Part shown: in pieces, positions 7,545 to 64,000 of the stretch
Numbering within the stretch: position 1 is the stretch's first letter
How the letters are laid out: each line of letters begins with the position of its first letter
NCBI GenBank assembly: GCA_964365185.1
Contig: CAYIOP010000003.1
Coordinates: 40,828-104,827, forward strand
Direction: 5' to 3'
Source: an uncultured Candidatus Saccharibacteria bacterium
GTDB taxonomy: Bacteria > Patescibacteriota > Minisyncoccia > UBA6257 > 2-01-FULL-56-20
DNA length: 64,000 bases
Notes under the pieces: generated by a model
Seen by the model: the letters and a program-made list of their open reading frames with translations, nothing else
What the model was told of the DNA's origin: nothing
Database searches by the model: none
Position numbers and translations under genes: made by a program

Positions 7545-8078
7545 TTATTTAAAAAATACTTTTCCTACTACCGTCACGTAATAACCCTCGGCTCCCCTGT
7601 TAATATCAAAATTATCAAAATTCAACAGGAACTGATTCGATTCCCTTTCTAATCTCCTCATTAACGCCACAATATTGCTTAAATCTCCGCTTAATCGAAT
7701 TGAAAACTGAGCTTGTCCAAAACCCTCCTCATTTGGTAAAACCTCATTGCCTTGAAAACTAAAAGTAATGCCAACTTGGTAATTCGAGGCCTCCCTATCC
7801 AACCATCCTGAAAAATTAACCACTAATTCATCTCTTGTGGCGATTAAACGCTCAAGAGCTTGGCTAAATCGAACAGCTTCTGTTTTTTCTTTTTTAAGAC
7901 TCGCCAAAGTCCCCGTTAAATTAGAACCCTGTCTAATCAAGCTCTTTTTTTCTACAATCTCTTGAATATTTTTGTTAATTTGAGCTCGAGACCAATAAAA
8001 AGCCGGAATAAAAATCATCGCTCCGCCTAAAATTATCCCAAGCGTAATCCAAATTTGGCGCCGATAATCAGATGACAT
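7545..8078 (-). CDS. membrane-anchored protein, possibly a PilN/PilO-like pilus assembly component
   Basis: N-terminal transmembrane helix, a coiled-coil segment and a C-terminal globular part. The assignment by similarity is weak. A TATAAT box precedes the gene on the minus strand (revcomp of 8081-8111) and an SD-like AAAAAGG sits immediately upstream of the ATG at 8078. Confidence 0.4.
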   Translation of the reverse strand: MSSDYRRQIWITLGIILGGAMIFIPAFYWSRAQINKNIQEIVEKKSLIRQGSNLTGTLASLKKEKTEAVRFSQALERLIATRDELVVNFSGWLDREASNYQVGITFSFQGNEVLPNEEGFGQAQFSIRLSGDLSNIVALMRRLERESNQFLLNFDNFDINRGAEGYYVTVVGKVFFK

Positions 8079-8162: not shown

Positions 8163-9194
8163 ATGGAACCAATCTTCTACAACTCTTTAAATTTAGCGCT
8201 CGAAAGCAATTACTCAAAATTGACTCGACTAAAAAACCATTACCAGACTTGGCAAAGAGCCTGGGAAAATATTCAAAATTCAGAAAAGCAAAGTTATAAT
8301 CCCGAAAAAGAATGGCAAAAATTAGAAAATCTAAATATCAAGCTGTGTCTCTTAGGCGACCTCTCATTTCCTCCTTTACTTCAAGAAATTCCTCACCCGC
8401 CTTTTGGTCTCTATCTTTTAGGCAACGACAAAATTATTTCTCAAGAATCAATCGCGATTGTTGGCACTCGTAAAGCCAGCCAAACCGGTAAAGAATTGGC
8501 TAAACATTTTTCCACCTCTTTAGCCCAAGCGGATTTAAATATTATAAGCGGCTTAGCTCTAGGCATTGACACCAAAAGCCACGAAGGCGCCCTGGAAGCT
8601 AAAAAAAACACGGTGGCAGTTTTTGGCAACGGCTTAGATTATATTTATCCCAGAATAAATGAAAAGTTAGCAAAAAAAATATTGGATCAAAGTGGCTTGC
8701 TGGTTTCAGAATACCCACCGGGCACACCCTCTCTTCCTTACCGCTTTCTTGAAAGAAATAGAATTATAAGCGGCCTCTCTCGAGGCATTCTAATTATTGA
8801 AGCCCCTGAAAATTCAGGATCGCTGGCCACTGCCCGTTTTGCCCTTGATCAAAATCGGGAAATTTTTGTTGTCCCCGGCTTTATTAATCATCCTAATTTC
8901 AAGGGCTCAAATGAATTAATCCGCCAAGGAGCCACTCTCGTCACAAAACCGGAACATATTTTAGAAGTGCTGAAACCAGAATTTTTAACCACGCCTAAAA
9001 ATCCTCCAACAATTTTTAACATTACCCAGGAAGAATCTAAAATTCTAAATACCTTTTCCTCTACTCATCAAACCTTAAATATTGACAAAATTATTGAACT
9101 CACTAAACTTGACGCCCAGACAGTCAACCAAACTTTATCTTTCCTTGTTATTAAAAATTTAATCAAAGAAACTGAAAACGGCTATACCCTCTAA
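8163..9194 (+). CDS. dprA: DNA processing protein DprA (Smf)
   Basis: Rossmann-like DprA core (IAIVGTRKAS...GLALGIDTKSHEGAL...) plus a C-terminal wHTH-like tail. Confidence 0.85.
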   Translation: MEPIFYNSLNLALESNYSKLTRLKNHYQTWQRAWENIQNSEKQSYNPEKEWQKLENLNIKLCLLGDLSFPPLLQEIPHPPFGLYLLGNDKIISQESIAIVGTRKASQTGKELAKHFSTSLAQADLNIISGLALGIDTKSHEGALEAKKNTVAVFGNGLDYIYPRINEKLAKKILDQSGLLVSEYPPGTPSLPYRFLERNRIISGLSRGILIIEAPENSGSLATARFALDQNREIFVVPGFINHPNFKGSNELIRQGATLVTKPEHILEVLKPEFLTTPKNPPTIFNITQEESKILNTFSSTHQTLNIDKIIELTKLDAQTVNQTLSFLVIKNLIKETENGYTL

Positions 9195-14082: not shown

Positions 14083-14127
14083 AACAATAGTTTAAAATTT
14101 ATTTTCTACATTTTTATTCGCAGCATT

Positions 14128-14157
14128 TCCTCCAAAGGAGGATCCTCCTTTGGAGGA
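14128..14157. repeat. perfect 30-bp palindrome TCCTCCAAAGGAGGA|TCCTCCTTTGGAGGA between parA and parB
   Basis: Exact inverted symmetry centred on GGATCC, and each half can itself form a hairpin. It belongs to the same GGAGG/CCTCC-rich family as the elements at 51711-51772 and 55500-55561. Confidence 0.7.
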
Positions 14158-14183
14158 CGCACTAATTTGTAGATTGGAATTAT

Positions 14184-15005
14184 TTATGTAACATTGAAAT
14201 TCCCAAAATCAGGGCTGGAACCAACTTGAACCCCGGTTAATGTTTTTTCTTGAGCAGTAATCTCCTCGGCCAAATTTTTATAAGCTAAAGCACCGATCGA
14301 ATCAGGCCGATAAAGCATGACTGGTTTTGAAAAACTAGGGGCCTCTGCCAAAGCCACGCTCCTTGGAATCTCGGTCTTAAAAACTAAATAAGGAAAATTG
14401 GTTCTTAGGTCCCTTGCCACTTCACGACTCAAACGTTCATTGCGATTATACATAGTAATTAAAGCTCCTGTAATTTTAATTTTATGATCCAAATTACCTT
14501 TAATTAAATCAATAGTTTGAAGAAGCTGCCCTAAGCCCTCTAAACTGTAATATTCAGCCTGAACCGGAATCAAAACCTCGCTCGAGGCCATCAAGCCATT
14601 CACCGTAAGCAAACTAAGCGACGGCGGCAAATCAATCAAAATATAATCGTAGCTATGCCGAACTCGATTTATAAATTTTCTCAAAAAATATTCTCGCTCC
14701 GGCAAATTTACCAATTCAATGAGCGCTCCGGCTAAATGCGGCGCGGCTGGCACTAAATGAAAATTAAAAAGCGCTGTCGGACGCAAAATATAATCATGCG
14801 GCGCGGCATTAATAATGCCGTGATAAACACTAAGTTCAGTTTTTAAAGGATCGTATCCCAAAGCCGAACTGGCATTAGCTTGAGGGTCAAAATCAACCAA
14901 AAGCACTCTTCTATTTAATGCGGCTAAATAACTTCCTAAATTTACGGCTGTGGTAGTTTTTCCAACCCCGCCTTTTTGATTACAAATTGAAATCACCCTG
15001 GCCAT
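14184..15005 (-). CDS. parA: chromosome partitioning ATPase ParA/Soj
   Basis: Deviant Walker A motif KGGVGKTTTAVNLG at the N-terminus. Confidence 0.9.
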   Translation of the reverse strand: MARVISICNQKGGVGKTTTAVNLGSYLAALNRRVLLVDFDPQANASSALGYDPLKTELSVYHGIINAAPHDYILRPTALFNFHLVPAAPHLAGALIELVNLPEREYFLRKFINRVRHSYDYILIDLPPSLSLLTVNGLMASSEVLIPVQAEYYSLEGLGQLLQTIDLIKGNLDHKIKITGALITMYNRNERLSREVARDLRTNFPYLVFKTEIPRSVALAEAPSFSKPVMLYRPDSIGALAYKNLAEEITAQEKTLTGVQVGSSPDFGNFNVT

Positions 15006-34255: not shown

Positions 34256-34690
34256 TCACACTTCTGCATTACCATTCCCTTTCGCCTCAGTTAAAATTCC
34301 TTTTTCTTCATTCGAATTCCATCGAGGAACAACCCTTGCTCCTAAAAGCTTTGATTCCAATTCATCTTGTATTTCTTGGAAAGTTATTTGCTTTCTATAA
34401 AGACCGACAATCCAAGGAATCAATGAATCGGGTTTAATTGATCCATTCCAAATCAAAAGCAGAATAGTATCGTCCTTCGACTCACTACCATTCGTATTCG
34501 AATCGTCTCCGACACTATCACCAGGTATTAAACCCACTATTCCTTCTCGGGCGTCCCGAAAATTTAATTTCCTTCTCCCAAGATTATCTAGAATTGAAAT
34601 CAACTCATCCGGCTTCACCCTTTGACCCTGAATGTGTTTAAAAAGAATTCTAAGCGGCGACCGAACAAATTTTTCTGGCACTTTTCTCAC
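34256..34690 (-). CDS. hypothetical protein
   Basis: 144-aa ORF in coding-dense context with no recognisable motif. Confidence 0.35.
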   Translation of the reverse strand: MRKVPEKFVRSPLRILFKHIQGQRVKPDELISILDNLGRRKLNFRDAREGIVGLIPGDSVGDDSNTNGSESKDDTILLLIWNGSIKPDSLIPWIVGLYRKQITFQEIQDELESKLLGARVVPRWNSNEEKGILTEAKGNGNAEV

Positions 34691-38357: not shown

Positions 38358-39029
38358 ATGGATTTCCCTCAATTTCTAAACGAAAAACTTAAAGAAAAAG
38401 GATTAACTTTAAAAAAGTTATCCGACCTAAGCGGTATTGCTCTAAAGCATCTTGAAAATTTGATGACCGGAAATTTAAACGACCTTCCCGCCGCTCCTTA
38501 TGTCCGCGGCTATCTTGCCAAACTCGGCGAAGTTCTCGACTTTGACAGCGATACTTGGTGGCAACGGCTTGCCGCCCAAAAAGAAATTTCCTCCTCTGGC
38601 TCCGCTGATCGGCTTCCAGATAATCGCTTTCTTAAAAAATCATCGTCTAAAAAAATCTGGCTCATAGTTATTATAATCATCGCTCTTTTTTATTTTGGCA
38701 TCCGCCTGCCAGAAATCATTGGCCGCCCCACCCTAACCATCACCTTTCCTCCTGAAAACCTAGCTACTTTAAATTCTAAAGAGCTAATGATCACCGGCCA
38801 CATTAAAAACGGCAACAAGGTTTTAGTGAATGGTGAAGAAATATTAATTAACGCCGAAGGTGATTGGCAAAAAATTATCCCGCTTGACCCGGGCTTAAAT
38901 AATATCGAAATTACCGGTAAAAAATTCCTGGGCCGCGAAGTCAAAATTATCCGCGAGATTATCTACGAAGAACCAAAAGAAAATCTGGAAGAATCTAACG
39001 CCACCTCAACTAAACAATCAGTAGAATAA
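38358..39029 (+). CDS. RodZ-like HTH (XRE-type) membrane protein
   Basis: N-terminal HTH with ...PYVRGYLAKLGEVLDFD, a single transmembrane helix and an extracytoplasmic C-terminal domain, which is the typical RodZ layout. Confidence 0.55.
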   Translation: MDFPQFLNEKLKEKGLTLKKLSDLSGIALKHLENLMTGNLNDLPAAPYVRGYLAKLGEVLDFDSDTWWQRLAAQKEISSSGSADRLPDNRFLKKSSSKKIWLIVIIIIALFYFGIRLPEIIGRPTLTITFPPENLATLNSKELMITGHIKNGNKVLVNGEEILINAEGDWQKIIPLDPGLNNIEITGKKFLGREVKIIREIIYEEPKENLEESNATSTKQSVE

Positions 39030-39912
39030 ACTACGCGTCGAAAAGTGGTATGATACTCCACTGCCACTAGTAGCTAAAAATAAAAGCTGGAGACAATTTC
39101 TTGCCTCCAGCACTTGATCCTCTAGGATCAAGAAAACCCACATGTTCCAGGAATGTAACGTATTCCTAAAAAAGTACACCTGCCCCCTAAATTGCCGCGA
39201 AATGAGCTAACGAGAACAGAAGCTCTAGTCCCCAGTAGCCGGATACGCATTGCCGATACAGACATCTCGATTTCCTTGGTCCATACTATTCCCCGTCCTC
39301 TGGACCGCATGGTCGAAATGGTTCTTCCGGATCCCAACAACGTTTCATTCTAACCCCCATCTCCTTCTTTGTAGTCAAGACGTTTTCTCATCTTAACCTT
39401 CTTTCTCTAGCCCCACTTCTACGTGACCAGTGTTCGTTCCGAGTTCAATTCACATCCTCCAGACACCGCGGTTGTGCCGAATTAGTGAATAAAAGTGCGT
39501 CAGACAAGATCACCTCCTTCTCTATTCACCCTTTGTCGGATCAAAAAAAGAAGTAATTTCTTTCATTCTTTCACCTCCTCTCTTCCTTAAAATTTTTCTT
39601 AGGCCACCGACTCAGATCAACTCCCCGAAAACCGTGACGAACACAAAGCTCGTGAAGTCTACACAGAACTGTAAAAATTGAATTATTAGATCCCCCCCTT
39701 CGTCGCCCAATCCTACTTTCTTGTTTCATAAAATCTCCCTGTTAATATACTAAGATCATCATACAACATTTACACAGTCAAAACAAACTCACCTTATTCG
39801 CATTATTTGAATAAATTAGCATTATTAGCGATTACTCCTTTTTATTCGTATCATTCGTCCGCCAGCTGGCGGAACATTTGTAGATTGGCATTATGTAATA
39901 TAAAATATCCCT

Positions 39913-40953
39913 ATGCTCAAAAAAACCAAGGAGGAAAAAGGTGATAAAACCGAAAATAAAGACCTCGACCACGTCCTCTCTACTCTTCGGGACAAATACG
40001 GCGAAGGCGCGATTATGATGCTTGGCGAAGCCAGAAGAGTGGACGTTGAAGTTATTCCCACTGGTTCTTTTTCTTTAGACATCGCTTTAGGCGTCGGCGG
40101 GCTACCCCGCGGCCGGATTGTTGAAATTTTCGGGCCCGAATCGAGCGGTAAAACCACGCTCTCTTTAAATGTTGTGGCTCAAGCCCAAAAACAAGGCGGC
40201 CGAGCCGCTTACATTGATGCCGAGCACGCGCTAGACCCTGAATACGCCAAACGCCTAGGCGTTAAAATCAACGACCTTCTAATTTCCCAGCCCGACAACG
40301 GCGAAGAGGCCTTAAATATCTTGGAGTCCTTGGTTCGCTCCGAGGCCATCTCAGTAATTGTTGTGGATTCAGTGGCCGCTCTAACTCCCAGAGCTGAAAT
40401 CGAAGGCGAAATGGGCGCTCAATTTATCGGCCTCCAAGCGAGAATGATGTCTCAAGCGCTTCGAAAACTCACGGCCATTGCCGCCAAATCCAGAACTTTA
40501 ATTATTTTCATCAATCAAATCCGCATGCAAATCGGCATGATGTTCGGCAATCCCGAGACCACTCCCGGCGGCCGCGCTCTTAAATTCTACGCCTCGGTCC
40601 GCATCGACGTTCGTAGAGTAGCCCAAGTCAAAAAAGGTGAAAATGTGGTGGGCTCTCGCGTTAAAGCCAAAGTAGTCAAAAACAAAGTCGCCGCGCCTTT
40701 TAAGGTCTCGGAATTCGACATTATGTACGGCGAAGGCATCTCTTATGAAGCGGATGTGCTAAATGCCGGGCTAAAACACGGCGTCATCAAAAAATCCGGC
40801 GCCAGCTATAGTTTTGAAAACGAAAAACTCGGCGTTGGCTTTGACGCTATCCGCGAAAAATTAAAAATCGACAAAAAACTCTTAAAGGAAATCGAAAAAA
40901 AAGTTGAAGCCGAACTCCGCTCTCCAACCACCGTTTCTGCCTCCGAGGAATAA
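39913..40953 (+). CDS. recA: recombinase RecA
   Basis: Walker [13 protein letters not shown], loop L1/L2 regions and overall RecA collinearity. Confidence 0.9.
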
Positions 40954-40971: not shown

Positions 40972-41418
40972 TTAAAAAGACGGTTCAAAATCGTTGTTTG
41001 GAGTCGAGGTTGAAGTTGAATTCGGAGTCAAACCCGGAGTTAAATCAGTTGGCACGACAGGCAATCTTAACTCGGGAACTTCTTCGAAATTATTGTTTTG
41101 ATTATCAGATTGAGGCGTTGTTCTCAAAAAAGGATAAATAAAATAAATAAAAGATCCTATTATTATAATTGCCAAAACTAAAACCCAAATCACCGCCTTT
41201 GATTTTGGATTATTTAAACCGGCCAGCATTCCGGGTTTATTTTGAGAAACCGAAGACGCCAGTATGATTTTTTCTGATTTAGGAAAATTCCCACCCGACA
41301 AAATCATCGATTTTATATCTGACTCCAAAGTTCGAATCGTAATTTCAGTTGGCGGCGGCGGCACATAAGCGGTCTTATCCGACTCACTCTGCTCATAACC
41401 ATTAGAAAATTCAGCCAT
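40972..41418 (-). CDS. hypothetical membrane protein (Pro/Thr-rich)
   Basis: 148 aa with one transmembrane helix and low-complexity flanks. Confidence 0.35.
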   Translation of the reverse strand: MAEFSNGYEQSESDKTAYVPPPPTEITIRTLESDIKSMILSGGNFPKSEKIILASSVSQNKPGMLAGLNNPKSKAVIWVLVLAIIIIGSFIYFIYPFLRTTPQSDNQNNNFEEVPELRLPVVPTDLTPGLTPNSTSTSTPNNDFEPSF

Positions 41419-49040: not shown

Positions 49041-49403
49041 TTAGCTACCCACGCCTAAAACATCTTTAATAATAAAAACTACTCCTTTCGCCAAAAGAAT
49101 TATACCAAAACCCACAGCCGCGTATAAAATTGTTTTCCTACCCTTGCTAAATTTCTCCGGGTCTCCAGCCGCAGTCAAAATCTGAAAAGCCCCTACAATC
49201 ACCATCACCGTTGCAATCGGTGCTGAAAGCAAAATTAAACCGTTAATAATACTATTTACGCATTCCTCTAAAGTCACGCACTTTAAAGGATTGGGAATGG
49301 TGAATCCTTGCCCACCCGGCTCTCCATCTTGAGCCAACGCCACGCCAAAAAACAAAAAATTCCCTGCCAAAAATATAAAAATTCCAATCTTTAATCCCTT
49401 CAT
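49041..49403 (-). CDS. small secreted two-helix membrane protein, VirB2/TrbC-pilin-like (paralog 2)
   Basis: Signal peptide (…GVALAQ), two hydrophobic helices, and the motif LTAAGDPEKFSKGRKTILYAAVGFG. Confidence 0.4.
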   Translation of the reverse strand: MKGLKIGIFIFLAGNFLFFGVALAQDGEPGGQGFTIPNPLKCVTLEECVNSIINGLILLSAPIATVMVIVGAFQILTAAGDPEKFSKGRKTILYAAVGFGIILLAKGVVFIIKDVLGVGS

Positions 49404-51653: not shown

Positions 51654-51710
51654 CCCTTCTTATTTCCTTTATAATTTTTTTCTAATTTTATTGATTGAAA
51701 ATTGTTAATT

Positions 51711-51772
51711 GTCCTCCAAAAGAGGATCTCCTCCGAGGGAGGATCGGCCTTCGGGGGACGCCTCCGGCGGAG
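51711..51772. repeat. GC-rich hairpin-cluster repeat (copy 1)
   Basis: GTCCTCCAAAAGAGGATCTCCTCCGAGGGAGGATCGGCCTTCGGGGGACGCCTCCGGCGGAG, about 97% identical to 55500-55561, with diverged similarity extending for ~200 nt. Confidence 0.7.
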
Positions 51773-51899
51773 TAATTAATAATTTCTATTATATCTCTAC
51801 CGTATCTCTAATATGTCTCTTCTTGCATTCATACTTTTAGTTTTTCACTTTTCACTTTACGCCTCCTATTCCCTATCACCCATAACCTATCACCTAATT

Positions 51900-55286: not shown

Positions 55287-55499
55287 GAATCAATATTTCA
55301 ATCTATTTTAGCACAAAAAAGCCGCCCTGAAAAGACCAAATTAAAATAATTAACCTAATCTCAATAGTATTCCAATCGTATCTCAATTATTTTTCTCTTA
55401 TATCTCTACTGTATTTAAATCGTATTTTTTGATAATTAGTAATTAATTATTAATTGAAAATTGCTTGCCCGCCGTAATCTTGATGAAGGCGGAGCAATT

Positions 55500-55561
55500 G
55501 TCCTCCGAAAGAGGATCTCCTCCGAGGGAGGATCGGCCTTCGGGGGACGCCTCCGGCGGAA
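55500..55561. repeat. GC-rich hairpin-cluster repeat (copy 2)
   Basis: Near-identical to 51711-51772 and preceded by an extra hairpin GCCCGCCG…CGGCGGAGC. Confidence 0.7.
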
Positions 55562-55819
55562 TAATTGATAATTTCCATTGTATTTCCACTGTATCTCTAT
55601 TGCATTTCAATTTCTTAATATTCTTGATAATTTCTAGCTTTTATTTTATTGATAATTGGTCATTGAAAATTGATAATTTCTATCGTATTTCTTCTTAATC
55701 TAAACTTTTAGCTTTTCGCTTTGCGCCTTACATTCTCTATCATCTATCACCTAAAACCTAACGCCCGTCTCTTTTATTTGACGAAAATCTTGCCCTCCCC
55801 TATAATCATTGAACTAAAT

Positions 55820-57573: not shown

Positions 57574-58701
57574 TTAATTAAGTCGTTCAAATTTTAACTT
57601 CAATATCCTACGCAAAGATTCGTCGATTCTTTTTTCGTTAATTTTATTTTCTAAAACCGCCTGGCGCACTGCCTCCACTATCCCTTTATGCTTCGAGATA
57701 GTAAGCGTACTGATAATCATATCAGCCCCGGCATTAATAGCTTGAATGACTAATTGGCCAATCGGCAAATCGCCAGTTGATGCCATCTCTAAATCATCAG
57801 TGATAATCACGCCTTCATATTTTAATTGACCCCTTAATATCTCAATAAGAAAAACTGGTGAAAGCGTTGCTGGGACGTCATCGATTTCCTTAACCACAAC
57901 GTGCGCCGTCATCAGAACTTCCGGATGGGCCTGCCCAATAACATACTGAAAAGGAACAAGCCACTTTTCAAATTCATCGCCACCAGAAGAAACCGCAAAA
58001 TTCGTATGTGGATCTAATGTTCCGTTGCCATACCCCGGAAAATGTTTAGGCACCGCAATAATATCCGCCTCTCGGTAACCTTCAATCATGGCTTGGCCTA
58101 ACTTGCCAATAAGCTCGGGGGTTGCCTCAAAAACACGTTTGGATTTGAATAAATAGGCCTGAGGATTATTAACATAATCAATCACGGGCGAAAAATTCAT
58201 GTTAATGCCGAGCTCACGGAGTTCCTCGCCTCGCCTTTTAGCAATTCGCCGGGCTTCCTCAATGCTTTTTATCTCCATCTGAGGCGTCAGCTCACTTAGA
58301 AATTTAAACCGAACATAATCACCTCCTTCTTGATCGGTCGCAATAAATAAGGGAATTTCTGAATGTAATTTTAAATCACTAATCATTTTTATCACTCCTT
58401 CTCTATCGTTAACATTCCGAGCCAAAAGATTTACGCCTCCAACCCCGTAAACATCGATCATCTCTTTTATATGGTCATCAAAGTAAGGGTTTTTAAAACC
58501 AACAACCATCATCTGGCCGATTTTTTTCTCAAGCGGCAGAGTTTTAATGATTAACTCGATTTTATCCGTGTAATCTTGTTGAGATGATACTTTTTCAGGT
58601 GACGCAAAATAAATTTCTGCCTGTTGCGTACTACCTAAAGCAAAAATTAGGGCAATTATCGATGCCCCTAACACAGCTAAAAACGCAACCTTGCTTTTCA
58701 T
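57574..58701 (-). CDS. nagZ: beta-N-acetylhexosaminidase (GH3, NagZ-like)
   Basis: GH3 N-terminal-domain motifs KHFPGYGNGTLDPH and …ITDDLEM…. I placed the start at Met8 (ATG 58701), which overlaps the folD stop in an ATGA junction; the track ORF extends to 58722. Confidence 0.7.
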   Translation of the reverse strand: MKSKVAFLAVLGASIIALIFALGSTQQAEIYFASPEKVSSQQDYTDKIELIIKTLPLEKKIGQMMVVGFKNPYFDDHIKEMIDVYGVGGVNLLARNVNDREGVIKMISDLKLHSEIPLFIATDQEGGDYVRFKFLSELTPQMEIKSIEEARRIAKRRGEELRELGINMNFSPVIDYVNNPQAYLFKSKRVFEATPELIGKLGQAMIEGYREADIIAVPKHFPGYGNGTLDPHTNFAVSSGGDEFEKWLVPFQYVIGQAHPEVLMTAHVVVKEIDDVPATLSPVFLIEILRGQLKYEGVIITDDLEMASTGDLPIGQLVIQAINAGADMIISTLTISKHKGIVEAVRQAVLENKINEKRIDESLRRILKLKFERLN

Positions 58702-59528
58702 AAATCCGAATTCAACTTCCAAAAATTTTCGTAGAGCTTAGCCACTAGTATCGGCCCGGTGCCGCCCGGCGTTGGCGTGTAACTAATATTTCTATCCTCC
58801 TCGCCATCGGGATCAAAATCCCCATAAATTTTATTGCCTTCCCGGCTATAACCAAAATCCACCACCAGCGCTCCTTCCTTAATGTCCTTAGCCGAAAAAA
58901 TTCCAGCCACCCCCGTTCCGCTCACCACCACATCCGCATCCTTAAGTCGCGCCGGAATACCTTTCACCGTACTGTCAAAAACAGTTAATTCTCCCACCCG
59001 GTTCTGCAACCAAAACCCCAGCGGTTTGCCAATTAAAAATCCCGCTCCAATCAAAACCACTTTCAAATCCCTTAGCGATTTGCGATTTGCGATTTGCAAA
59101 TTAAGTATTTCCTCGAGCGCCTCCACGGCCGGCGGCGCCACCTCGCCTCGTCCGGTATAAAACGCGCCCAGCGCTTTTTCGCTCAAACAATCCACGTCTT
59201 TTTCTTTTGGAATCGCGTTTAAAACATAATGTTTATTGATTGATTCCGGCAAAGGTAGTTGCACCAAAAACCCGCCGCAATTTTTCGGCCGTGTGAGCAT
59301 CCCAATCTCCGCCCGCAAATCATCCGTGGTCACTCCCTCCGGCGCCCGGTGCAGCCGAAAACTAATTCCCAATTCCTCCGCCACTCGCTTTTTTTGGTTC
59401 AAAAAATTCTCCGATGCCAAATCATCTCCCACCAGCATCGCTCCCATAAACTTCCCCTGCCATTCCTCTTGGTGTTCCTTAAGTTTTTCAATTATCCCCA
59501 CCGCAATTTTTTTCCCGTCAATAATCAT
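58698..59528 (-). CDS. folD: bifunctional methylenetetrahydrofolate dehydrogenase/cyclohydrolase FolD
   Basis: Collinear with FolD (…VVLIGAGFLIGKPLG…). Contains an in-frame (GATTTGC)x3 insert at 59077-59097 encoding …QIANRKS…. Confidence 0.85.
   Translation of the reverse strand: MIIDGKKIAVGIIEKLKEHQEEWQGKFMGAMLVGDDLASENFLNQKKRVAEELGISFRLHRAPEGVTTDDLRAEIGMLTRPKNCGGFLVQLPLPESINKHYVLNAIPKEKDVDCLSEKALGAFYTGRGEVAPPAVEALEEILNLQIANRKSLRDLKVVLIGAGFLIGKPLGFWLQNRVGELTVFDSTVKGIPARLKDADVVVSGTGVAGIFSAKDIKEGALVVDFGYSREGNKIYGDFDPDGEEDRNISYTPTPGGTGPILVAKLYENFWKLNSDL
59077..59097. repeat. tandem heptamer (GATTTGC)x3 inside folD
   Basis: Three perfect 7-nt units; the same unit is present four times inside glyA at 61045-61072. 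Confidence 0.8.
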
Positions 59529-63617: not shown

Positions 63618-64000
63618 AATTTTCTCCTTCTTTTGACCGTTTTTACAAAAACACTGTTGGACTTAGCCGTATTGGTTTCGCCACAGCCCGGAACGGCTTT
63701 TACTAAAAGCAATTCTGGGCTATAGCGAAATCTCGCAATTATCAATTTTCTATTTTAATTATACCACACAAAATCCAATTTCGTCAATACCTCAAAAATC
63801 CTTATTTTACCGCCTTCGTCGCCCCCCCACCTTCCAAGGGGAAACTGATTTTTCTGAAACCAGAAGCGAAAGGTAAACTAAAACCTAACCCATTTTCATT
63901 AAATCGTTCGAACAAGTCCCGCCTTATCGGGACGATCCGACATTCATGCATTTCTCGCGATATCCTATTGGCTAAACCCTAGTGGCTAATTAACTAATCC

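Follow-up and report, generated by a model that had tools for sequence, protein, structure and literature searches.

Genomes of the Candidate Phyla Radiation (CPR) are tiny and densely packed, and an 883-bp stretch that looks "empty" calls for an explanation. Here, we asked what occupies such a stretch beside recA in an uncultured groundwater bacterium. The DNA analyzed (hereafter, the window) comprises 64,000 nt of contig CAYIOP010000003.1, and the gap spans 39030..39912, with no strand assigned and with coding-like GC. Its left edge is the stop of a RodZ-like HTH_25/Glucodextran_B gene (38358-39029, plus strand; hereafter, the HTH_25 gene), and its right edge is the ATG of recA at 39913 (gene at 39913-40953, plus strand). 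A first-pass annotation had called it the largest stretch of the window free of open reading frames (ORFs), with none above 90 aa, and had proposed a large noncoding RNA or a decayed element. The first two points hold: the 883 nt contain no ORF of at least 100 aa, the runner-up in the window being 817 nt, and the longest ORF inside the gap has 70 aa.

Our analysis predicts that the minus strand of the gap probably carries a polycistronic array of micro-ORFs, which would be lineage-restricted and missed by annotation. According to the best-supported reading, at least two of these, ORF A (MKEITSFFDPTKGE) and ORF B (MKRCWDPEEPFRPCGPEDGE), may be regarded as genuine peptide genes under constraint. 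What is new is the narrowly distributed array; unannotated small-ORF clusters of bacteria are a known kind. Copies of the gap, whole or in part and 100% identical, are present in the Hainich aquifer metagenome assemblies ERZ1292629, ERZ1292632, and ERZ1292626 (ENA) and in the Logan assembly of run ERR3858118.

A chain of minus-strand mini-ORFs next to recA

Seven closely spaced mini-ORFs of 9-52 codons, each led by a Shine-Dalgarno (SD) sequence, tile the minus strand from 39729 to 39225, and the minus-strand mini-ORFs with SD and ATG were found as the first-pass annotation had described them. All features of the chain given below lie on the minus strand. The first cistron has 52 codons (MKQESRIGRRRGG...KEERR, 39571..39729) with the SD GGGAG 5 nt before its ATG, and its TGA stop sits within the SD of the following ORF. 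It is called as a gene in L082; among 1.84 billion representatives it matched only itself, and we therefore rejected this orphan as a conserved gene. ORF A follows with 14 codons (39522..39566) and the SD GAGGAGGTGA. Behind it, a perfect 12-nt extended SD, AAGGAGGTGATC (39508..39519), stands directly before the TTG start of a 20-codon ORF, MSDALLFTNSAQPRCLEDVN (39445..39507), for which no homologue was found. Read on the plus strand, these 12 nt are GATCACCTCCTT, which had been noted as a match to the 16S rRNA 3' end at 39499-39510; the match lies instead at 39508-39519 and is no rRNA fragment, as no small-subunit rRNA model in Rfam gave a match.

The fourth cistron is the 9-codon MNSERTLVT (39419..39448), whose TTG start overlaps the preceding stop (ATTGA) and has GGAGG 7 nt upstream. 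It is followed by a 13-codon ORF, MRKRLDYKEGDGG (39350..39391), whose last Gly codons form the GGGGG SD of ORF B (..GGGGGTTAGAATG..), a junction that is found in the same form in the related locus L108. ORF B itself has 20 codons (39286..39348), and the ATG of the final, 19-codon ORF, MDQGNRDVCIGNAYPATGD (39225..39284), lies 1 nt past its stop. Thus, the mini-ORFs show what is expected of small coding genes, namely, a start, an SD at proper spacing, and an in-frame stop. The distance from each stop to the next start is between -4 and +27 nt, and several SDs are composed of the last Gly codons of the previous cistron and its stop region (..GGN GGN TAG A ATG..). An 8-bp hairpin, CTTGATCC/GGATCAAG (39113..39132), stands just upstream of an intrinsic terminator with an 11-bp stem followed by TTTTATTTTT (39076..39111), whose T-run is confined to the minus strand. 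The gaps of the related loci L085, L095, and L101 are likewise closed by a minus-strand terminator.

Based on this layout, the gap would harbor a transcription unit on its minus strand that runs divergently to recA and convergently to the HTH_25 gene, with a polycistronic chain of 9-52-codon micro-ORFs and a strong SD for each cistron. The unit would be transcribed and translated, with its cistrons coupled. Because several of the SDs are built from the preceding Gly codons and stop, ribosomes would probably move between the mini-cistrons by termination-reinitiation coupling. The shortest gene called anywhere in the loci that we compared has 30 aa, and most of the mini-ORFs are smaller.

Homologues of the predicted peptides and turnover of the slot

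The loci of relatives were fetched via their RecA proteins (labels L085, L095, L098, L099, L101, L105, L108, and L109). The closest public RecA proteins are 86-87% identical to that of the window and are labeled Paceibacterota, Parcubacteria, or Patescibacteria; the window genome is assigned to the Parcubacteria/Paceibacteria (CPR). The order ftsK / HTH_25 / gap / recA / hypothetical / pnp / NYN / S15 is conserved, with ftsK upstream of the window gap and the hypothetical gene and pnp downstream. In the relatives, the gap is 70-905 bp long, and the large gaps contain similar minus-strand arrays.

Peptides of these arrays share the motif [hydrophobic]-D-P-x-E/K-P/G ... G-G/E-stop. L085 encodes MQKLFDPAEPNRPRYPGEGG, L095 encodes MITRRLLDPEEPSRPRHPEVGG and MRVIVIIPLGCCRELDPTKGE, L099 encodes MKEFGDPRKLPRGG..., and L109 encodes MKKILDPTEPRRLFGKDGASPYRAKRCLEPGNGG and MEEILYPDEP; L108 has four consecutive units (MKISDPTDGG, MNNHDPTNGG, MKKILDPTEPRRIFGDEGLGPSRSKRCFEPGNGG, and MKKILYPDEPRRLFGYGFTGP). 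The predicted array peptides also include CWDPEEPFRPCGPEDGE and EITSFFDPTK, and ILDPTEPR for L108. ORF B is a member of the resulting DP-x-EP-x-R family, found in the same slot of L085, L095, L108, and L109. A profile made only from peptides of the relatives placed it at the top of the 3,988 six-frame stop-to-stop segments of the window (21.9 bits, E 3.6e-5); the next match had an E of 0.58, and ORF A came fourth. ORF A and ORF B are also the only 2 of 177 minus-strand SD-led ORFs with the DP motif in 64 kb. The C terminus of ORF A, DPTKGE-stop, is identical to that of the L095 ORF A through four synonymous changes and a TAG/TAA difference, and its SD/start region resembles that of an L099 ORF, MKEFGDPRK.... 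Together, these data show that at least two of the predicted window peptides, ORF A and ORF B, have homologues at the peptide level in the corresponding slot of relatives.

Searches with a profile of the ORF B type returned no further member in 1.9 million residues (six-frame translations of all fetched loci), and thus, the family is narrow. Neither the DP peptides nor the 52-aa ORF matched Pfam-A, NCBIfam, PADLOC, or PDB. A scan of a genome collection with RecA yielded, among the matches listed, mostly distant bacteria and none with gap-like sequence, and a metagenome scan with an alignment of the HTH_25 protein gave one useful locus, which was identical to L085.

We compared the chain and the motif with dinucleotide shuffles. 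When an SD was required, the chain covered 536 nt with 7 ORFs as compared to 117 ± 62 nt and 1.3 ORFs, a value reached by 0 of 300 shuffles; elsewhere in the window, an intergenic gap holds between 0 and 2 short ORFs led by an SD. The 11 syntenic gaps contain 43 SD-led short ORFs (22 ± 5 in shuffles) and 11 motif-bearing SD-led entries (0.09 in shuffles), which correspond to 10 distinct ORFs as ORF B of L085 was counted from two starts; GGAGG occurs in them 29 times on the minus and 0 times on the plus strand, with 12.8 ± 3.3 in shuffles. The shuffle statistics of both the chain and the 11 gaps are optimistic, since the data had already been inspected when the DP motif and the list of extended SDs were drawn up. 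The relatives-only profile test is unaffected by this.

Substitutions were examined in the pairs L108/L109 and L085/L095. Among 61 differences, 37 fall on codon position 3 (binomial p 1.1e-5), and the codon changes divide into 25 synonymous and 23 non-synonymous ones. In unit 3 of L108/L109, with 12 synonymous and 8 non-synonymous codon changes, 10 of the synonymous ones leave MKKILDPTEPRR and KRCxEPGNGG unaltered. ILYPDEP of unit 4 is maintained with the third position changed in four of its codons, and in L085/L095 the stop of ORF B is kept through a change from TGA to TAA. The same comparison bears on a short DNA motif. GATC occurs 8 times in the gap as compared to ~2 at the window rate, whereas it is under-represented in the whole window (142 observed versus 222 expected from base composition). 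The sites in the gap arise from the use of GAT for Asp in most units, and L109 encodes the same D-P as GAC CCC; therefore, the constraint would be on the peptide and not on GATC, and we rejected GATC/GGATCC as a conserved element.

These patterns are consistent with selection on the amino-acid sequence, which would act on a free peptide or on the ribosome-bound nascent chain. ORF A and ORF B would belong to a fast-evolving, lineage-restricted family, in which hydrophilic micropeptides of Pro/Gly/acidic character share the core [hydrophobic]-D-P-x-[E/K]-[P/G], and the arrays would expand and contract via tandem duplication and deletion.

Beyond the post hoc definitions, several observations weigh against an array of constrained peptide genes. 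The substitution pattern alone cannot separate the short-ORF frame from its antisense partner: synonymous and non-synonymous changes are 24:20 in the former, 22:21 in the wobble-sharing antisense frame, and 2-7:36-39 in the other four. Only the short-ORF frame has starts, SDs, and no internal stop; the minus strand was chosen because starts, SDs, conserved stops, and terminators all lie on it. Codon usage in the chain is intermediate (0.05 bits/codon versus 0.32 ± 0.07 for genes), four of the seven cistrons, the 52-codon one included, have no detectable homologue anywhere, and the minus-strand unit of the window showed no sigma-70 promoter of the consensus type. Most genes of the window lack an SD, so that the heavy reliance of the array on SDs is unusual and unexplained. 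Last, the content of the slot turns over fast. With RecA proteins 97% identical, L099 and L101 still have gaps that for the most part cannot be aligned, and L109 lacks two of the units present in L108.

This turnover also speaks for the strongest rival, according to which the gap would be mostly neutral, fast-turning-over sequence with a few constrained pieces. It might be a hypervariable recombination spot or what is left of a mobile element or a lost gene; in that case, the purine-rich strand would have given rise to the mini-ORFs as by-products, and the DP-x-EP pieces would be relics of a longer ancestral gene. In L085 and L095, whose RecA proteins are 99% identical and whose recA and HTH_25 genes differ by only ~15% at third codon positions, ~150 nt of the gap next to recA are conserved (97%), but the rest is only 70-77% identical (23-30% different), with large indels in addition. 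The wide range of gap lengths and the orphan status of the 52-aa ORF fit this explanation as well, as does the tiling, which without the SD requirement (ORFs of at least 8 codons) is unremarkable and no different from shuffles. So do the unrelated occupants that the slot holds in other lineages: a charged 113-aa ORF in L098 (2534-2875, minus strand), a 60-aa ORF in L105 (1245-1427, minus strand) with a weak match to HTH_23/transposase-type HTH (E 3e-4, below the cutoff), and a hydrophobic 37-aa ORF in L101 (1149-1262, minus strand; MKKFVVTAFVALIIIWAMPMLAEAG...).

However, three lineages with RecA proteins of only ~86% identity have kept start, SD, length, and stop, which would not be expected of relics, and neither would the synonymous-biased change in close pairs. 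The 29:0 strand bias of GGAGG and the minus-strand terminators are conserved features too. Furthermore, no intact longer homologue exists in any relative, and the other occupants (113 aa in L098, 60 aa in L105, and 37 and 39 aa in L101) showed no similarity to the window in tblastn. As tblastx between the gaps was likewise without similarity, we rejected the idea of a pseudogene, and the decayed element proposed at first is not supported. At the slot, we found neither an integrase nor a transposase, and neither flanking repeats nor a tRNA; apart from the terminator the gap has no internal direct, inverted, or tandem repeats. On balance, we regard a neutral or decaying origin as unlikely.

Judging from these comparisons, the slot between the HTH_25 gene and recA behaves like a hypervariable islet of small genes, which always stands back-to-back with the recA promoter. 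In L108 (720-800, minus strand) and its L109 counterpart, we also observed a segment of ~80 nt (GGTTATGCGAACGTTT[C/T]ATCGGAGT[T/C]GCGC...GCGCGACTCCGATTTTTT) that is far better conserved than its surroundings. It lies downstream of the DP array, between two terminator-like hairpins, and may be a separate small RNA or short ORF.

Base composition, RNA structure, and the use of SD sequences

The gap had been set apart by a C+T-rich top strand and by GC content above background. The first of these is not a distinguishing feature. On the plus strand of the entire window, C is 0.248 and G is 0.159 independent of gene orientation, and the gap, with 0.273 and 0.148, has a skew that equals that of ordinary minus-strand genes; read in the minus orientation (G 0.273, C 0.148, purine 0.566), it resembles any such gene. 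As the skew is constant whatever the orientation of the genes, that of the gap is the replication skew of the window. This skew is strong, with C in excess of G on the plus strand for genes in either direction, and the majority of the genes are encoded on the minus strand. The GC content of the gap (42.1%) does exceed that of the other intergenic gaps (31-40%) and is therefore coding-like, but it hardly departs from the window average (40.7%). It is gene-like GC together with gene-like G>C on the minus strand that sets the gap apart from other intergenic gaps.

The 12-mer CCTTCGTCGCCC had been seen both in the gap and in the tail of the window. It does recur, at 39697-39708 and 63813-63824 rather than where it had been placed. 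By our own estimate, ~6-7 exact 12-mer recurrences are expected by chance for an 883-nt query against 128 kb, and blastn of the gap against the window returned about ten further exact matches of 12-14 nt, none significant. With the shared 12-mer at chance level and a best E of 0.31 in tblastx of the two regions, we rejected a link between the gap and 63621-64000.

Could the gap encode a large structured RNA from its minus strand, either of the OLE/GOLLD/ROOL kind or a divergent RNase P RNA, tmRNA, or intron? Its length, its gene-like GC, a G-rich minus strand with a terminator, and a few local hairpins would agree with such an RNA. Searches of the whole window with Rfam 15 at the gathering score detected 7 tRNAs only, and thus no OLE, GOLLD, ROOL, HEARO, RNase P RNA, tmRNA, 6S RNA, intron, or riboswitch. 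At relaxed settings (E up to 10), 38900-40000 gave only noise, namely, matches to models of eukaryotic lncRNAs and snoRNAs and to one sRNA model that resembles a terminator, the best E (0.028) being that of a human lncRNA model without structure. ARAGORN detected no tmRNA or tRNA in the gap. Neither strand folds in excess of dinucleotide shuffles, of which only 20 per strand were used: the 701-nt minus-strand RNA has a minimum free energy of -195 kcal/mol as compared to -189 ± 7 (z -0.85), and z is -0.36 for the plus strand. When the gap was compared to the syntenic gaps of relatives by blastn and nhmmer, only a 37-nt patch around one SD/start was similar. Only the gaps of close pairs align, and the relatives gave no wider alignment from which covariation could be computed. 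In addition, divergence across most of the gap equals or exceeds the synonymous rate in the pair whose RecA proteins are 99% identical, and the conservation that exists is codon-periodic. The proposed large noncoding RNA thus lacks a Rfam match, excess folding, and nucleotide conservation in syntenic relatives; we consider it highly improbable, and the structured-RNA reading is essentially excluded.

Elsewhere in the window, we noted an intergenic GC-rich hairpin element of ~85 nt in two nearly identical copies at 51706-51790 and 55496-55580 (AATTGTCCTCC[A/G]AAAGAGGATCTCCTCCGAGGGAGGATCGGCCTTCGGGGGACGCCTCCGGCGGA...), which resembles a palindrome, CCTCCAAAGGAGGATCCTCCTTTGGAGG, at 14127-14154. 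It has no Rfam match at the gathering score and may be a repetitive extragenic palindrome (REP)-like repeat, a small structured RNA, or a terminator family.

Most genes of the window have no SD, and many have a TATAAT/TAAAAT-like box 6-12 nt before the ATG (for example, 765-1973, 7545-8078, 8163-9194, 40972-41418, and 49041-49403), which suggests that leaderless mRNAs may be widespread in the genome. A minority have a strong GGAGGTG at their starts (for example, at 34690 and 58322); therefore, the anti-SD is presumably present. From the 12-nt SD at 39508-39519, we predict a canonical 16S 3' tail, ..GAUCACCUCCUUA. Two of the seven minus-strand copies of GGAGGTG in the window fall in the gap. 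A further observation concerns a listed ORF at 57574-58722 (minus strand) that begins with TTG (58722); a very strong internal SD and ATG, AGAAGGAGGTGATTATG (SD at 58317-58328), suggests that its true start may be ~130 codons further in. Tsurumaki et al. 2022 (PMC9297842) found the anti-SD motif in only 48% of the 16S genes from Parcubacteria, and thus, the use of SDs in Parcubacteria is atypical.

The clustering of strong SDs, one of them of 12 nt, in a genome where most genes are SD-less and many apparently leaderless is among the facts that could also be explained if the act of translation or the RNA itself, and not free peptides, were functional. In a cis version, the DP-x-EP cistrons would be sensors of the nascent chain or of ribosome occupancy that control the fate of the transcript or read-through toward the HTH_25 gene. 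In a sponge version, RNA rich in SD and GGA would titrate 30S subunits or a GGA-binding protein where ordinary mRNAs are mostly SD-less, a setting to which the low detection of anti-SD motifs in the lineage (PMC9297842) would also correspond. Conservation of the ORF B type covers the N-terminal ~12 residues, followed by tails of 0 to 24 residues, and L109 truncates unit 4 directly past ..YPDEP, as would fit if only the first ~10 codons mattered. Moreover, L099 and L101 keep the position of the second-cistron SD and ATG before unrelated ORFs. On the other side, no structural gene precedes the terminator, which leaves no obvious regulated target; the C-terminal KRCxEPGNGG and DPTKGE are also kept through synonymous changes; and the enrichment of GGAGG on the minus strand of the window gap is marginal (4 versus 1.4 expected, p 0.055). 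Such a function seems to us quite unlikely.

The recA side of the slot and known systems

A recA promoter-like site, TTGTAG-17 nt-TAAAAT (39878..39906, plus strand), ends 6 nt before the recA ATG, and TAAAAT is retained 7-10 nt before the ATG in relatives. This implies that recA would be leaderless or have a very short leader, and therefore, the rest of the gap would not be its 5' untranslated region. Between this promoter-like site and the minus-strand unit lies a perfect 16-nt palindrome, TCCGCCAGCTGGCGGA (39858..39873, no strand), which was not conserved in the relatives examined and could be an operator or an insulating hairpin. The sequence after it, GAACATTTGTAG, bears a loose resemblance to the GAAC-N4-GTTC LexA/Cheo box. 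We also observed a 22-nt near-repeat (20/22 identical) of the recA -35/spacer, ATTTGTAGATTGGCATTATG, at 39876-39897 and 14165-14186. Both copies are directly preceded by a GC-rich palindrome and may represent a shared operator/promoter module.

As the back-to-back placement with recA is kept whatever the content of the slot, co-regulation with recA, for example in a stress or DNA-damage response, would be the most natural guess, although it is a speculative one. A more elaborate proposal would be a new kind of translated device, in which a rapidly evolving, SD-driven, coupled cassette, in a genome that mostly initiates translation in other ways, encodes a D-P-x-E-P nascent-chain sensor of pausing or occupancy, or a free acidic, Pro-rich micropeptide that acts on RecA-pathway proteins. 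In both versions, the recombination and repair response of an ultra-small symbiotic bacterium would be coupled to translation status or to a peptide signal; we regard this as very doubtful.

The suggestion of a leader-peptide array made in the first-pass annotation proved partly right. The mini-ORFs are a real signal, and MKRCWDPEEPFRPCGPEDGE and MKEITSFFDPTKGE have peptide-level homologues in this slot of relatives; however, the chain reaches its terminator with no structural gene in between, which sets them apart from classical leader peptides. The leader and arrest peptides TrpL, HisL, ErmBL/ErmCL, TnaC, and SecM are encoded upstream of the structural gene that they regulate. The window chain resembles them in its ORFs of 10-30 codons, in apparent selection on amino acids, and in conservation that centers on a short Pro/Asp core while the remainder varies. 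In contrast, it ends in a terminator that faces a convergent gene, and it has neither alternative terminator/antiterminator hairpins nor a run of regulatory codons. Past the last mini-ORF there are two hairpins and a terminator, and then the convergent HTH_25 gene, which is not the arrangement of an attenuator.

In architecture, the chain recalls the psm-alpha operon of Staphylococcus aureus, where tandem ORFs of ~20 codons with individual ribosome-binding sites form a short transcript in a region long annotated as intergenic and encode paralogous peptides that arose by tandem duplication. The phenol-soluble modulins are amphipathic, helical, surfactant-like peptides. Those of the window, in contrast, are hydrophilic, have many Pro, Gly, and acidic residues and D-P-x-E-P as their core, and are not predicted to form a helix. 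There is no sequence similarity, the phylum is another one (Parcubacteria), and no known exporter or regulator lies near the array.

Proximity to recA invites a comparison with tisB/istR-1 and dinQ/agrB of Escherichia coli, SOS-regulated genes for tiny peptides that lie in seemingly "empty" DNA between genes and are tied to the DNA-damage regulon; the window array likewise shares a short divergent control region with recA. TisB and DinQ are controlled by antisense RNAs and LexA boxes. However, they are single hydrophobic membrane toxins, and neither a LexA box nor an antisense partner was identified in the window, where the 39858-39873 palindrome is not conserved. The hydrophobic transmembrane character of type I toxin peptides (TisB, DinQ, Ibs, Ldr, and Hok) was not found in the window peptides, which are hydrophilic; among the slot ORFs, only the unrelated 37-aa ORF of L101 is hydrophobic.

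Two classes of RNA were also considered. Like the CsrB/RsmZ sponge RNAs, the minus-strand transcript would be several hundred nucleotides long, with many SD-like GGA/GGAGG motifs and an intrinsic terminator at its end; unlike in these RNAs, each motif precedes a start codon and an ORF at SD distance, and the signal is codon-periodic. No Csr/Rsm family of Rfam matched the gap. Size (600-800 nt) and location in an unannotated gap are shared with OLE, GOLLD, ROOL, and HEARO, from which the window gap differs in that it matches no covariance model, shows no structure in excess of shuffles, and is not conserved at the nucleotide level. Searches of the accessible literature for small ORFs of CPR bacteria and for tandem coupled micro-ORFs gave no description of such an array in these bacteria.

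If the minus strand of this gap does encode an array of constrained micropeptides, it would add a new micropeptide family with no database match in a group whose small proteome is essentially uncharted. It would also provide an example of SD-dependent coupled translation in an organism where most mRNAs look leaderless and in a lineage where loss of the anti-SD has been described (PMC9297842). Furthermore, it would define a hypervariable small-gene slot beside recA that can be traced across Paceibacteria. For the analysis of such genomes, the locus calls for caution, in that purine-rich ORF-free gaps should be checked for micro-ORFs before they are called candidates for noncoding RNAs.

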